Below, in pieces: positions 3,308 through 7,801 of a stretch of 19,618 nt of DNA. A program made the position numbers and the translations under genes. This DNA is from a virus (Duplodnaviria > Heunggongvirae > Uroviricota > Caudoviricetes). Numbering within the stretch: position 1 is the stretch's first letter; every line of letters starts with the position of its first letter. The notes under the pieces are model-generated. The model did no database searches. It saw nothing but the letters and a program-made list of their open reading frames with translations, and had not been told where the DNA came from. The stretch lies in IMG/VR virus record IMGVR_UViG_3300014691_000062; one strand, written 5' to 3'.

Positions 3308-3601
3308 ATGAAAAAAATGTTGTTTTCTGCCGCTCTGGCAATGCTTATTACAGGATGTGCTCAACAGACGTTTACTGTTGGAAACAAACCGACAGCAGTA
3401 ACACCAAAGGAAACCATCACCCATCATTTCTTCGTTTCGGGAATTGGACAGCAGAAAACTGTTGATGCAGCCAAAATTTGTGGCGGCGCAGAAAATGTTG
3501 TTAAAACAGAAACCCAGCAAACATTCGTAAATGGATTGCTCGGTTTTATTACTTTAGGCATTTATACTCCGCTGGAAGCGCGGGTGTATTGCTCACAATA
3601 A
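3308..3601 (+). CDS. bor: Bor outer-membrane lipoprotein (serum-resistance lysogenic-conversion protein)
   Basis: 97 aa from the internal ATG (MKKMLFSAALAMLITGCAQQTFTV…EARVYCSQ), near-identical by recall to lambda Bor; lipobox LITGC; opposite strand to and just downstream of Rz, as in lambda and DLP12. Confidence 0.9.
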   Translation: MKKMLFSAALAMLITGCAQQTFTVGNKPTAVTPKETITHHFFVSGIGQQKTVDAAKICGGAENVVKTETQQTFVNGLLGFITLGIYTPLEARVYCSQ

Positions 3602-4592: not shown

Positions 4593-4919
4593 TTACTCCT
4601 TAGAGCCACCAAACTTGTTACCGATTACTCGCATTGCAGCCCCACGAATAGCATCGACACCGATCAGCCCCACCCCACCACCAATGGCAACAGATAGTGA
4701 TTTAGGCCATCCGACATACTCAAGCGCGGATGCAAATGTCAGCGTCAGAGCGCCACAGAGTAAAATCTCAAGCGTTTTTCGCTTCCAGCCACCACCACCG
4801 CCAAAATAGGCAATGCGCAAGCCAGCCATAACGATCGACATAATCACTGCGCCCAGTGGTGTGTCTCCACGCCACCAGCTCTGGACCAACTCCAGCCAGG
4901 TATTTGGGTTATGAGGCAT
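4593..4919 (-). CDS. Putative holin (not lambda S-like or S21-like)
   Basis: 108 aa directly upstream of the endolysin; two to three hydrophobic segments, Gly-rich stretches and a charged C-terminus; GAGGTGAG SD upstream of the ATG. Assigned on position and topology only. Confidence 0.55.
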   Translation of the reverse strand: MPHNPNTWLELVQSWWRGDTPLGAVIMSIVMAGLRIAYFGGGGGWKRKTLEILLCGALTLTFASALEYVGWPKSLSVAIGGGVGLIGVDAIRGAAMRVIGNKFGGSKE

Positions 4920-5071
4920 TTGTAGTTATCTCTCACCTCGCTGATACAGCAGGTGCAAATTGAGGGAACATCATGTACAGCAAATTAGAAGCGGAAACGT
5001 CAAAGAAGCCGAACCAATGGATAACTGCGGAATAGACCAGGACCAACGAATCCCCAGCCCCAGAAACGACA

Positions 5072-5093
5072 AAACCCGCTCAACGGCGGGTTT
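5072..5093 (-). terminator. Intrinsic terminator-like hairpin upstream of the holin gene (tR'-like position)
   Basis: Stem aaacccgc/gcgggttt (8 bp); on the minus strand it is followed by a T-rich tract (TTTTGTCGTTTCT). Confidence 0.5.
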
Positions 5094-5209
5094 AAGCTGT
5101 GTGGCGAAGTAACCACTCTTAACAGAGTACTGTATTTTTTGCGTACGCATTAGTATTTTTTGAAGTATTATCAACACCAATTGTTCAAAACCATTAAAAG
5201 GATGTTGTT

Positions 5210-6244
5210 ATGACTGCATCAGCGACCCCCACTAATATCACTCATAAGTTTATTGTTCACATTATGAACAAGGAACAACAGGGGTTAGCCACCATTATTC
5301 CTTGTCCTTCAGAAAAACCTGTTCAGCAAGCATCAAAAGACCTCTCTAACGCACTTACTGAAAGGTACTCTGGGAGAGCAGGTAAAGGATATGGGAAATT
5401 TGAAGATGACCGCGATAGTTACCCTATGGGTAATATCGTTGATGATTATTTCGTAAATAAAACACATAGTTTTTATGATACTAGTATCCGAATGATCAAT
5501 CATTTAAAAGCCAGAGCCGATGATGAATCAATGTCTACTGGTGGTTATGTAATAATTGCCCATAATGAGGTAAATGGAAATCATTATTTGATGGTTGCAA
5601 TCCTAACTTCAGCAGTTGGCTCTTCAGTCCACGATTTTGAAATTCAAGAAAGTGAATATCTAGACATTGCTAAACTTCGAGTAGCGGGACGAATTGACTT
5701 AACTGGGCGCCAGAATGGCAAAGAGAGATATATTAGCTTTCTAAAGGGGCAAAATTCAGTAGCAGGTTATTTCAAAAAGTTTTTAGGTTGCAACGATATT
5801 CTAATTGCCAAACAAGAAACAACAAAATTACGGAATGCACTTTTAGAATTTGCTACTGAAAGAGGTTTTGAACCAGAGGCACGTGAAGAGTTCCTAAATA
5901 AGGCTCATGAAAAATTAAAAAATTTAAATCGTTCTGGTGAAACTTTCGACACTCAAATTTTTGCAAACGAGATATGGCCAACTGCTCCTGAGTTGTTAGT
6001 TGAAAAGTTAACCAATGACGATCTGGAGTTCTCTGATGGGTTCGTGCCTGATGGCAACGTTATACGTGGGCTTGTTAGTTTCAAAGGAAAGTCCAAACAT
6101 TGGTCTCTGAAATTCGAGCGTGCGGCCTTGCATGATGGCAGCGTTCTTTATGATTCAGAAAACGATAAATTGATACTTACCGAGATTCCGGATACGCTAA
6201 GATCAGAGATTTTATCAGAATTAGGTGAAGAGGATGAGCAGTAA
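5210..6244 (+). CDS. YejK/NdpA-like (NA37 family) nucleoid-associated-protein homologue, cargo gene
   Basis: 344 aa; AAGGA SD 7 nt upstream of the ATG. By-eye alignment to E. coli YejK along the length ([22 protein letters not shown] / [38 protein letters not shown]…RYISFLKGQ / YLDINHADIVARIDLT…RYLTFLKGR). AT-rich relative to the phage backbone. Confidence 0.75.
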   Translation: [344 protein letters not shown]

Positions 6245-7412
6245 AAATCAGAGAACCTTCAAAGACTTAGTGACTATTTACAAGGCCGCTACATTTGCAG
6301 GTACCCTATCTGAAGCATCACTCATTCTTTCAAACGAGGAGCTCTGTGACATCATCAACGATATCACAGAGAATCCCCATGATTTTGGCATCACCCTTGA
6401 ATCTGGCAACATTGAGTTAGGCCAAACTATAACCTTACATATAACCCCCCCCAAATTACGATTGGGGCAGCTACATTTCTCTTTTAATGAGTATTTAAAA
6501 AATCCTAAAAATAGGATAAAGGAAGCCAGTAACTTCTTTATAATCGAACTTAATTATCACAACAGGGATAAAAAGTCGCCTGCTATTATATCCAAGTACA
6601 GAGATGTTTTGAGCTTAATTACTTTATTCAAAGATTGTTCTGCTTATTTAGATGAAACAAATTTTGAATTGGTATTCGTCGAATCCAACGTACTAAAAAT
6701 TCCAGTAAATTATTCTAGCGATGATCTTATGAATGTTAATGGAGATCTGATTCATAATTTGATCGCAAACTTTGCAGAAGATACGCATAAAGATCAAAAA
6801 CTTACTATTTTAGCAAGTAGTATAAAATCATCATGTGAATCTAAAACTAAAGAAACCTCTTTTTCCTTCATGTTAAGGGATTTAGGACAACTTTATGAAA
6901 GTTATCAAAAAGGATACAAAGTATTCGTTTCTGGTTTTTCTTACGAGAAAATACTAGATCAGTTACGAGTAGCCAAAATAGAAGAGATGGGGAAAATACA
7001 TAAAGTATTCAGTGACATACAAAATCAGATATTAGGTATCCCCGTCGCAACAATTATCGTTGCGACTCAAATGAAGCAGGCTAATGGTTGGGATAGTCAA
7101 GCATTAATAAACACAGCTGTAGTGTTGGGTGCATTGTTCTTCACTATTATGATTATATTTGTTCTATTTAATCAATGGCAAACTTTAACAGCAATAAATG
7201 ATGAGTTAAATCATAAAAAACAACAAGCAGAATATAACTTCAAGGCTATTTACGAAGATATAAAGGATACATTTGATAGTTTAACCACAAGATTGCTTGT
7301 TCAGAAAGTTGTTTTTGCCTCATTAGGAATTATAGTTTTATGTGGCTTATATCTTACATTTAGATTCTACTTTTTACTTACACCTTATGCTATTACATAT
7401 TTATTTAGCTGA
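6234..7412 (+). CDS. Membrane protein with a large N-terminal soluble domain and two C-terminal transmembrane helices, cargo gene
   Basis: ORF 6225..7412 (GTG); preferred ATG at 6234 with AGGTGA SD, overlapping the upstream stop by 11 nt. Hydrophobic helices ALINTAVVLGALFFTIMIIFVLF and VVFASLGIIVLCGLYLTFRFYFLL. Very AT-rich. No family recognised. Confidence 0.75.
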   Translation: MSSKNQRTFKDLVTIYKAATFAGTLSEASLILSNEELCDIINDITENPHDFGITLESGNIELGQTITLHITPPKLRLGQLHFSFNEYLKNPKNRIKEASNFFIIELNYHNRDKKSPAIISKYRDVLSLITLFKDCSAYLDETNFELVFVESNVLKIPVNYSSDDLMNVNGDLIHNLIANFAEDTHKDQKLTILASSIKSSCESKTKETSFSFMLRDLGQLYESYQKGYKVFVSGFSYEKILDQLRVAKIEEMGKIHKVFSDIQNQILGIPVATIIVATQMKQANGWDSQALINTAVVLGALFFTIMIIFVLFNQWQTLTAINDELNHKKQQAEYNFKAIYEDIKDTFDSLTTRLLVQKVVFASLGIIVLCGLYLTFRFYFLLTPYAITYLFS

Positions 7413-7429
7413 CGGCCAATATGGCCGTC
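7411..7429. terminator. Perfect hairpin between convergent Q and the cargo cassette (candidate bidirectional terminator)
   Basis: gacggcc-aatat-ggccgtc, 7-bp GC-rich stem, in the 24-bp gap between the two convergent stop codons. Confidence 0.55.
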
Positions 7430-7436
7430 TAATAAA

Positions 7437-7784
7437 TTACCCATGTATTATATATATAACTGCATCAATAAATCCCAATGCAGCTTGCAACTTTTTTCTT
7501 ATAGTCCCATCAGAGCATTTTCTCTTCTTCGCAATAGTGCGTAATGAGATACCGATAACATAGTGAGCAATGATTAGCTCATATTCTTCAGGCCTATATT
7601 TACGCAACCGAGCCACACAACTGTCTATCATAATGCCTTCGTCATCATCACACTGAATCCGGGACTTTTTGCCATGAGGTAAAAGTCCCTTGAAGCCAGC
7701 GGCTACCGGTTGCCAGTCCACTCCGCTATTGTCTGAAGCAGCCCAAGCTCCCCAACGATCCATTACTTCATACATATCACGCAT
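7437..7784 (-). CDS. Late-gene antiterminator Q (QuuD / phage-82 type)
   Basis: 115 aa from the ATG at 7784 (track start 7799 is TTG); GGAGAAAG SD. Matches DLP12 QuuD by recall (MRD…RWGAWAA…AAGFKGL…KSR.QC.DDD…CSDG.I.K.LQ). Confidence 0.8.
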   Translation of the reverse strand: MRDMYEVMDRWGAWAASDNSGVDWQPVAAGFKGLLPHGKKSRIQCDDDEGIMIDSCVARLRKYRPEEYELIIAHYVIGISLRTIAKKRKCSDGTIRKKLQAALGFIDAVIYIIHG

Positions 7785-7801
7785 CAACTTTCTCCACAAA
7801 A

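Follow-up and report, generated by a model that had tools for sequence, protein, structure and literature searches.

A prophage-borne gene pair between the holin and Q genes of Escherichia coli encodes a likely membrane effector of the DS-1/type II PANGU kind

The window analyzed here is a stretch of 19,618 nucleotides from a virus of the Caudoviricetes (IMG/VR record IMGVR_UViG_3300014691_000062), and its setting as a whole is that of a lambdoid (e14-like) prophage of Escherichia coli. A cassette of two genes lies between the holin gene and the gene for the Q antiterminator, on the strand opposite to the late genes, and it consists of a gene for a YejK/NdpA-like protein with an NA37 domain, followed by the gene for a membrane protein at positions 6234-7412 (Table 1). 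The cassette has a GC content of 0.31-0.39, as compared to approximately 0.52-0.55 in the flanks, in line with an earlier reading of the letters by themselves (hereafter the sequence-only reading), which had described this DNA as very AT-rich. The same reading had put forward the membrane protein as the candidate effector of the two-gene cargo cassette, with a topology that resembles abortive-infection effectors. This proposal is backed by the homology of both genes to the DS-1 system, by an architecture like that of the type II PANGU systems and by pairing with an NA37 gene in 74 of 74 cases, and we consider it likely that 6234-7412 encodes the membrane effector of a prophage-borne two-gene anti-phage cassette of the DS-1/type II PANGU kind.

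Table 1. Positions in the window of the cassette, its flanking genes and the segments of the membrane protein (aa, amino acids; TM, transmembrane).
Feature	Position	Strand	Remarks
Holin gene	4593-4919	-	Flanks the cassette
Upstream gene, YejK/NdpA-like nucleoid-associated protein (NA37 domain), 344 aa	5210-6244	+	Pfam PF04245; proposed sensor/partner
Coupling junction	6223-6244	+	AGGTGA Shine-Dalgarno sequence at 6223-6228; ATG at 6234; NA37 stop codon at 6242-6244
Membrane-protein gene, 392 aa	6234-7412	+	Remote DS-1B homolog; Pag2B-like architecture
N-terminal alpha/beta domain, aa 1-216	6234-6881	+	Predicted cytoplasmic; proposed NA37-binding domain
Juxtamembrane "stalk" helix and conserved hydrophobic motif ILGIPVATIIVATQMK, aa 217-289	6882-7100	+	Predicted helix at aa 217-277
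Hydrophobic helix 1 (TM1), aa 290-312, ALINTAVVLGALFFTIMIIFVLF	7101-7169	+	Kyte-Doolittle maximum 2.76
Polar linker, 46 residues, aa 313-358	7170-7307	+	6 K/R, 7 D/E
Hydrophobic helix 2 (TM2), aa 359-382, VVFASLGIIVLCGLYLTFRFYFLL	7308-7379	+	Kyte-Doolittle maximum 2.26
GC-rich stem-loop, GACGGCC-N-GGCCGTC core	7411-7430	.	Lies in the 24 nt that separate the membrane-protein gene from Q (convergent)
Q antiterminator gene	7437-7799	-	Flanks the cassette; convergent with the membrane-protein gene

The open reading frame (ORF) finder placed the start of the membrane-protein gene at a GTG codon at position 6225. We prefer the ATG codon at 6234, because the sequence AGGTGA is located 6 nt upstream of it and because the same start has been annotated in RefSeq for identical DNA (WP_052516676.1, 392 aa). 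With this start, the gene shares 11 nt with the end of the NA37 gene, an overlap of which the sequence-only reading had already taken note, and the two genes are therefore probably translationally coupled.

The membrane protein was assigned to phrog_5023 (E = 9.4e-80), a PHROG without an assigned function, and its product name in RefSeq is "hypothetical protein". No Pfam domain was identified in the protein, the best match being YbhQ with an E-value of 0.05 and a score of 14 bits against a cut-off of 27.4, and no match to a housekeeping transporter or sensor was obtained from NCBIfam and Pfam, where YbhQ (E = 0.05) and ProW (E = 0.035) were far below the cut-off. A match to such a family was what the sequence-only reading had named as speaking against its proposal; none was found among the profile libraries, and the TM helices stand. 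A sequence search of the PDB with the family profile gave nothing at E <= 1, and the protein has neither the GMN signature nor the specific structural match of a CorA/Mrs2-type channel.

The hydrophobic segments of the membrane protein were scored on the Kyte-Doolittle scale over 19 residues, and two separate segments with a score of at least 2.2 were seen in 27 of 5,000 shuffled versions of the protein. We also built an AlphaFold2 model of the protein with 30 homologs, for which the mean pLDDT was 81. The model has alpha/beta structure to approximately residue 180, helices to residue 215 and long helices at residues 217-277, 288-335 and 340-382, with both hydrophobic stretches inside the last two of these, which answers the call for a structure prediction made in the sequence-only reading. 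The N-domain was modeled with confidence as a separate unit (pLDDT 93.8), and, according to the prediction, the linker continues the two membrane helices as a helical hairpin on the membrane face opposite to the N-domain. Of the two hydrophobic helices and the amphipathic linker of about 50 residues that had been expected from the sequence, the helices were confirmed; the linker is only 46 residues long and clearly amphipathic only in its second half (approximately residues 329-355), where the hydrophobic moment is 0.38-0.48, as compared to a mean of 0.23 for the protein. Likewise, the soluble part had been described as rich in K, E and N, which is only roughly right, as L, I and S are abundant in it along with K, N and E.

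At least two hydrophobic segments were identified in 233 of 236 full-length relatives (two in 184 and three in 47 of them). By mean pairwise identity, the stalk with the motif ILGIPVATIIVATQMK (residues 216-290) ranks first (0.57), followed by TM1 (0.47), the linker (0.37), the N-domain (0.32) and TM2 (0.29). The stalk and motif region is thus the best-conserved part of the protein, with a run of invariant residues that extends from G227 to Q279, and TM2 is hydrophobic yet poorly conserved. Further invariant residues are N293 and G299 in TM1, N313 and Q314 at its end, and E324, F347, R353 and Q357 in the linker. Since the invariant polar residues (N293, N313, Q314, E324, R353 and Q357) are located at the ends of the membrane helices and within the linker, the C-terminal module is more than a passive anchor. 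The combination of a conserved stalk and TM1 with a variable N-domain fits a fixed effector core that is joined to a co-evolving, partner-binding domain. The N-domain has a net charge of -5 and a pI of 5.7 in the window copy, which is ordinary for a cytoplasmic protein, and it is net negative in 99% of the family, with a median charge of -8.5.

We compared the two proteins of the cassette to DS-1, or DefensePredictor system 1 (working id D390), a two-gene unit from E. coli in which DS-1A (WP_000355468.1) contains a YejK domain and DS-1B (WP_000150292.1) is a hypothetical protein of 404 residues (DeWeirdt, Mahoney & Laub, Science 2026; PMC13092281). When cloned on a low-copy plasmid with its native promoter, DS-1 reduced phage plating, with values of -log(EOP), the efficiency of plating, of 7.6 for Bas1, 2.7 for Bas26, 1.7 for Bas3, 1.7 for T3, 1.0 for T5 and 0.9 for T7 (Table S7 in PMC13092281); neither mutants nor a mechanism were reported for DS-1 in that paper (PMC13092281). 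The membrane protein matched the NCBIfam profile DS1_2_antiphage (NF053869) with an E-value of 1.5e-19 and a score of 70.4 bits, residues 83-330 being aligned to positions 36-287 of the 337 in the profile, and the NA37 protein matched DS1_1_antiphage (NF053868) with an E-value of 2.8e-15 and a score of 56.2 bits. In BLASTP searches, the membrane protein showed 28% identity to DS-1B over 104 residues (E = 3e-7) and the NA37 protein 25% identity to DS-1A over 197 residues (E = 3e-10). A profile of 30 family members was aligned to DS-1B by hhalign with a probability of 94.5% and an E-value of 8e-8 over 279 collinear columns (residues 63-358 against 61-366). Within the membrane protein, the stalk and ILGIPVATIIVATQMK region gave the best alignment to DS-1B. 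When DS-1B was the sole query, 339 sequences were retrieved out of the family proteins and locus ORFs taken together, with a best E-value of 6.6e-17. Because of these matches, we regard both proteins of the cassette as true, distant relatives of the DS-1 proteins.

The two systems have the same layout, in which an NA37/YejK-like gene is followed by the gene for a protein of approximately 400 residues with a soluble part of about 280 residues, two C-terminal hydrophobic helices and a polar spacer, and both come from accessory DNA of E. coli. However, DS-1A has a Cys-rich, N-terminal zinc-ribbon extension of approximately 40 residues (MDITCLECG...CDKCG), which is absent from the NA37 protein of the window, where the domain begins at residue 15. 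The hydrophobic helices of DS-1B are weaker, with a Kyte-Doolittle maximum of 1.56 as compared to 2.76 in the window protein, and the identity of the cassette to DS-1 is only about 25-28%.

A profile search that covered 1.84 billion representatives, with clusters at 50% identity, showed that the family of the membrane protein comprises at least 1,144 clusters at E <= 0.001, 785 at E <= 1e-10 and 325 at E <= 1e-30. Nearly all members are 380-420 residues long, their names in the source are "hypothetical" or "phage-related membrane protein", none contains a Pfam domain, and most are located in prophages. An NA37 gene was identified directly upstream of the full-length relative, and on the same strand, at 37 of 37 genome loci, drawn from the Gamma-, Beta-, Delta- and Alphaproteobacteria and two other phyla, and on 37 of 37 viral contigs from IMG/VR. 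The gap between the two genes ranges from -44 to +3 nt, as called with a longest-ORF caller, and the pairwise divergences of the two proteins are correlated (r = 0.94). Throughout the family, the two genes are inherited together. Among the two nearest neighbors on each side at the genome loci, the commonest were helix-turn-helix, Q antiterminator, holin, integrase, Mu portal/gp27/F, restriction endonuclease, methyltransferase and toxin domains; Holin_2-3 and Phage_antitermQ were each found at 4 loci, and MqsR was also present. Several of the loci are Mu-like prophages in which the pair is positioned immediately before the lysis genes.

A few sequences related to the pair are incomplete. At three loci from Cupriavidus (L042, L043 and L044, approximately 6004-6630), an ORF of 208 residues matches residues 191-386 of the membrane protein and adjoins genes for a nitrilase-like protein and an MFS transporter in three genomes, in one of them on a plasmid. 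These short ORFs were considered as an independent module and rejected, as they match the C-terminal half only, have no NA37 gene and look like 5'-truncated remnants. In Xenorhabdus budapestensis (L005, 3211-5017), the NA37 gene is in two pieces of 247 and 97 residues, located approximately 770 bp apart, upstream of an intact membrane-protein gene, which suggests an insertion in, or decay of, the partner gene. Shortened membrane proteins of 267 residues (P0020, 99% identical) and 257 residues (P0032, 83% identical), with about two thirds of the protein covered, recur in many records from E. coli and Salmonella (30 and 42 member sequences, respectively), which suggests that the gene is frequently truncated or mis-annotated.

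The partner protein was identified as an NA37 protein by Pfam (PF04245, E = 8.3e-69, residues 15-330), and it was assigned to phrog_3767 and matched the YejK structure 9be2 in the PDB (E = 1.7e-19). Its score against the YejK equivalog of NCBIfam (NF001557) was 164.8 bits, as compared to a cut-off of 341, and it is therefore not the housekeeping YejK. The alignment to E. coli YejK covers residues 93-334 and includes the C-terminal dimerization region. A full-length NA37 domain is thus held in common with E. coli YejK/NdpA, whereas yejK is a conserved chromosomal gene and the NA37 gene of the window is rare, AT-rich, carried by a prophage and joined in an operon to the gene for a membrane protein. 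In identical DNA, the gene product is annotated as WP_000127202.1, which is listed as "Predicted novel defense gene" with a log-odds of 9.14 in Table S10 of DefensePredictor.

The position of the cassette was compared to that in sibling prophages (L048, L049 and L050), in which the slot at 4920-7436 holds different genes. One of them contains DUF262 and a MAE_28990-type HEPN nuclease (opposite to Q) together with a cytosine methyltransferase (on the Q strand), another TIGR04255 and two hypothetical genes, and the third two hypothetical genes of 927 and 549 nt, in the latter two cases on the strand opposite to Q. Because the sibling prophages hold other cargo there, we refer to the gap between Q and holin as a variable cargo/defense hotspot. 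In total, the cassette was found in 16 of 5,426 complete E. coli genomes; the Q and DUF968 module of this prophage type was found in 631 complete E. coli genomes at a coverage of at least 80%. The uncharacterized genes in the slots of the sibling prophages are themselves candidates for defense genes.

The stem-loop in the short gap between the membrane-protein gene and Q folds as RNA with an energy of -16.3 kcal/mol (z = -4.5), and none of 200 shuffled sequences was as stable. It probably serves as a transcription stop or insulator for both of the convergent genes, and it was missed by a scan for consensus terminators because it has no T-run.

The architecture of the cassette can be likened to that of the PANGU systems, whose infection sensor, a nucleoid-associated protein (NAP), is YejK-like (Li et al., April 2026; bioRxiv 10.64898/2026.04.06.716658). 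Type I systems consist of a NAP and a toxSAS enzyme and type II systems of Pag2A and the transmembrane effector Pag2B, in which an N-terminal, NAP-binding "DMK" domain (DNA-mimicking, acidic) is followed by a C-terminal TM domain; NAPs pair with many types of effectors (Li et al., 2026). In the type II system from E. coli (PANGU-Ecu), neither gene is dispensable and neither is toxic by itself, and the curves for growth and phage yield are those of abortive infection, with growth arrest at a high multiplicity of infection (Li et al., 2026). Phage T4 escapes from type II PANGU via mutations in denA, the nuclease that starts the breakdown of host DNA, Pag2A-GFP leaves the nucleoid upon infection with T4, and the isolated N-domain of Pag2B binds Pag2A with a Kd of 19 nM (Li et al., 2026). 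In type I, a NAP that is dead in DNA binding causes constitutive toxicity (Li et al., 2026).

By comparison with the description in the preprint, type II PANGU is like the cassette in being bicistronic and in combining a YejK-like NAP with a partner that has a C-terminal TM domain; it occurs in E. coli and is spread across phyla, and its proposed logic is that of a nucleoid sensor and a membrane effector. In contrast, the N-domain of the window protein is only mildly acidic and the NAP of the window is without the basic triad of Pag1A and YejK. The PANGU operons were also chosen for their location near known defense genes, whereas the cassette in the window is prophage cargo beside lysis genes. 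Kiwa, with the membrane protein KwaA and the DNA-binding protein KwaB, is another two-gene defense with the same type of pairing. There, sensing falls to KwaA and the effector function to KwaB, opposite to the assignment proposed for the cassette, and KwaA is polytopic, without a large cytoplasmic domain.

The assignment of the cassette to an anti-phage kind is thus supported by homology, and the relatives offer a scheme for how it may act. In an uninfected cell, a dimer of the NA37 protein would be held on the chromosomal DNA. Degradation of the host chromosome by an infecting phage would release the NA37 protein, which would then be free to bind the cytoplasmic N-domain of the membrane protein (residues 1-216), as in the PANGU relatives. 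We further suggest that the binding is relayed via the stalk helix and the IPVAT motif (residues 217-289) to the two-helix hairpin, which may oligomerize or rearrange and thereby make the inner membrane leaky or depolarized. The infected cell would be stopped before phage progeny are produced, in an abortive infection, and the lysogen and its prophage would be protected against superinfecting lytic phages. Phages of the T7/T3-, T5- and T1-like groups, which are known to degrade host DNA, are among those blocked by DS-1. This fits the proposed trigger, although T1 and T5 are insensitive to the two PANGU systems of the preprint (Li et al., 2026).

Several observations weigh against this interpretation. 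The scores against the DS-1 profiles are far below the equivalog cut-offs, with 70.4 as compared to 315 bits for NF053869 and 56.2 as compared to 330 bits for NF053868, and membrane damage has been reported for neither DS-1B nor Pag2B. No sigma-70-like promoter was found in a scan of the + strand upstream of position 5210. The mild acidity of the N-domain, with its net charge of -5, gives weak support for a "DNA mimic". PADLOC v2 (2023) assigned 0 families to the two cassette proteins, its Kiwa models included, a result that is uninformative because the library predates the papers on DS-1 and PANGU.

The DNA contact of the NA37 protein also counts against the proposal. YejK-type proteins are ring clamps on double-stranded DNA, and E. 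coli YejK, which modulates gyrase and topoisomerase IV, depends for DNA binding on the pore residues R173/R176/K177 and R276/R280/K284 (PMC11229321). The DNA contact in Pag1A consists of K200/R203/K204, with a spacing as in the YejK triad (Li et al., 2026). In the alignment of the window NA37 protein to these pore residues, R173/R176/K177 correspond to Q/gap/S and R276/R280/K284 to G/R/S, so that five of the six have been lost, including the triad equivalent to that of Pag1A. Because of this loss, retention of the window protein on the nucleoid cannot be taken for granted. In most of the wider clade the first position is an Arg, conservation extends to other basic residues (K179, K189, R157, R161 and R286), and DNA binding by the window protein is still plausible. 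The Q/gap/S and G/R/S pattern is that of the enterobacterial branch of NA37 proteins (residues 173-190 and 280-296), and the relatives from beta- and deltaproteobacteria mostly keep Arg at the first position of the triad.

The loss of five of the six pore residues, taken together with the conserved stalk and TM1 and the invariant polar residues on the far side of the membrane, also raises the idea that the clade departs from the PANGU model. It could then form a gated inner-membrane channel of unseen fold, governed from the cytoplasmic side by the clamp, which would respond to a signal other than its release from the nucleoid, such as the ends of phage DNA or a phage protein, or a membrane device that captures incoming DNA, but we consider such a departure unlikely. 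Incoming DNA would also be the target if the NA37 clamp were held at the inner membrane and there trapped or blocked the DNA of the phage, with survival of the cell. Proteins of the YejK type clamp double-stranded DNA as rings, the membrane-anchored partner has a large cytoplasmic domain, to which the clamp binds in the PANGU relative, and prophage-encoded membrane proteins are often superinfection-exclusion factors. The 7.6-log block of Bas1 by DS-1 moreover exceeds that of many abortive systems in plaque assays. Type II PANGU is, however, abortive and is escaped via denA and not via injection proteins, Pag2A-GFP is on the nucleoid before infection and not at the membrane, and the NA37 protein of the window has lost most of the DNA-contact residues of YejK, which makes exclusion at the membrane quite unlikely. 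The roles of the two proteins could also be swapped: the membrane protein would then detect phage proteins or events at the envelope, and NA37 would be the effector, with DNA or topoisomerases as its target. In favor of such a swap, the PANGU preprint raises in one sentence the possibility that PagB is the sensor, and gyrase and topoisomerase IV are both modulated by the YejK of E. coli. The N-domain, a fold without a known relative, is moreover the part of the membrane protein that evolves fastest, which would be expected if phages exert selection on its surface. Since the NAP of type I PANGU is clearly the sensor, which activates an enzymatic toxin and gives constitutive toxicity when it is dead in DNA binding, since the pairing of NAPs with many effector types fits a constant sensor with swappable effectors, and since the stalk and TM1 make up the conserved core, we find such an exchange of roles very unlikely.

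The proximity to the lysis genes calls for a comparison with a lytic function of the phage itself, for example a holin-like or lysis-timing protein with a partner that reports on the state of the DNA. The pair adjoins lysis genes in unrelated prophages and is located between Q and holin here, in Mu-like prophages it immediately precedes, in the same orientation, a holin/transglycosylase or VanY-like gene, and a two-helix hairpin is the topology of class II holins. But the cassette is outside of late transcription, because it is on the strand opposite to the late operon and a strong hairpin closes off Q, and the prophage already has a complete set of holin, endolysin and Rz. Sibling prophages fill the same slot with unrelated cargo of the defense type, some relatives are located outside of recognizable prophages, for example beside methyltransferases, DS-1 protects when cloned alone on a plasmid, and a protein of 392 residues with a cytoplasmic part of 290 residues is unlike the holins. 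It was mainly on the strand, the size, the variable content of the slot and the stand-alone activity of DS-1 that the holin reading was rejected, and we hold a role in lysis to be highly improbable. An ordinary, non-defensive membrane protein, such as a housekeeping transporter, sensor or anchor that is present in the prophage by chance, is scarcely credible, and the housekeeping transporter or sensor reading was rejected. A membrane effector in an anti-phage cassette of the DS-1/type II PANGU kind is thus the interpretation that we favor.

The surroundings of the cassette were also inspected in the genome of E. coli 50EVA, which carries DNA that is 100% identical to positions 5100-7450 of the window. 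According to the RefSeq annotation, the neighbors on one side are genes for a terminase, an HNH endonuclease, an Iss/Bor lipoprotein, Rz, a lysozyme and a lambda-family holin, and those on the other side are genes for the Q antiterminator, DUF968, KilA-N, RusA, repressors and an integrase. Between the cassette and the holin gene in the window, the - strand, which is the late-gene strand, contains a hairpin like an intrinsic terminator at 5072-5093 (AAACCCGCCGTTGAGCGGGTTT) with a T-rich tail, in a position like that of tR' in phage lambda. If the hairpin is tR'-like, the late promoter and the Q-utilization site would be within 5094-5209, and the cargo would separate the Q gene from the promoter on which Q acts. 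A gene for a lipoprotein of the Bor/Iss type (MKKMLFSAALAMLITGC...) follows immediately downstream of the lysis genes, at 3308-3601 (+). The matching RefSeq genome names its product "increased serum survival lipoprotein Iss", a second lysogenic-conversion gene of the prophage.

Pairs of a YejK-type protein and a membrane protein entered the literature only in 2025-2026, with DS-1 and type II PANGU. The cassette overturns nothing, and it is best seen as a sensible extension of this freshly described kind of system. It has strongly diverged from DS-1, with its identity of approximately 25-28%, the absence of the zinc ribbon, its stronger membrane helices and an altered DNA-contact triad, and it reveals a large and very divergent branch of the DS-1/PANGU-type family that is cargo of temperate phages in many proteobacteria. 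In the prophage studied here, it occupies the slot between Q and the lysis genes that is used by toxins and other defense genes in related prophages. For annotation, the comparison would give a meaning to a gene that is a "hypothetical protein" in RefSeq, without a Pfam family, and to phrog_5023, which has no assigned function. For the mechanism, the branch would offer a clean comparison of how the membrane partner acts, as it combines stronger helices and a conserved stalk with a NAP that is without the canonical triad.

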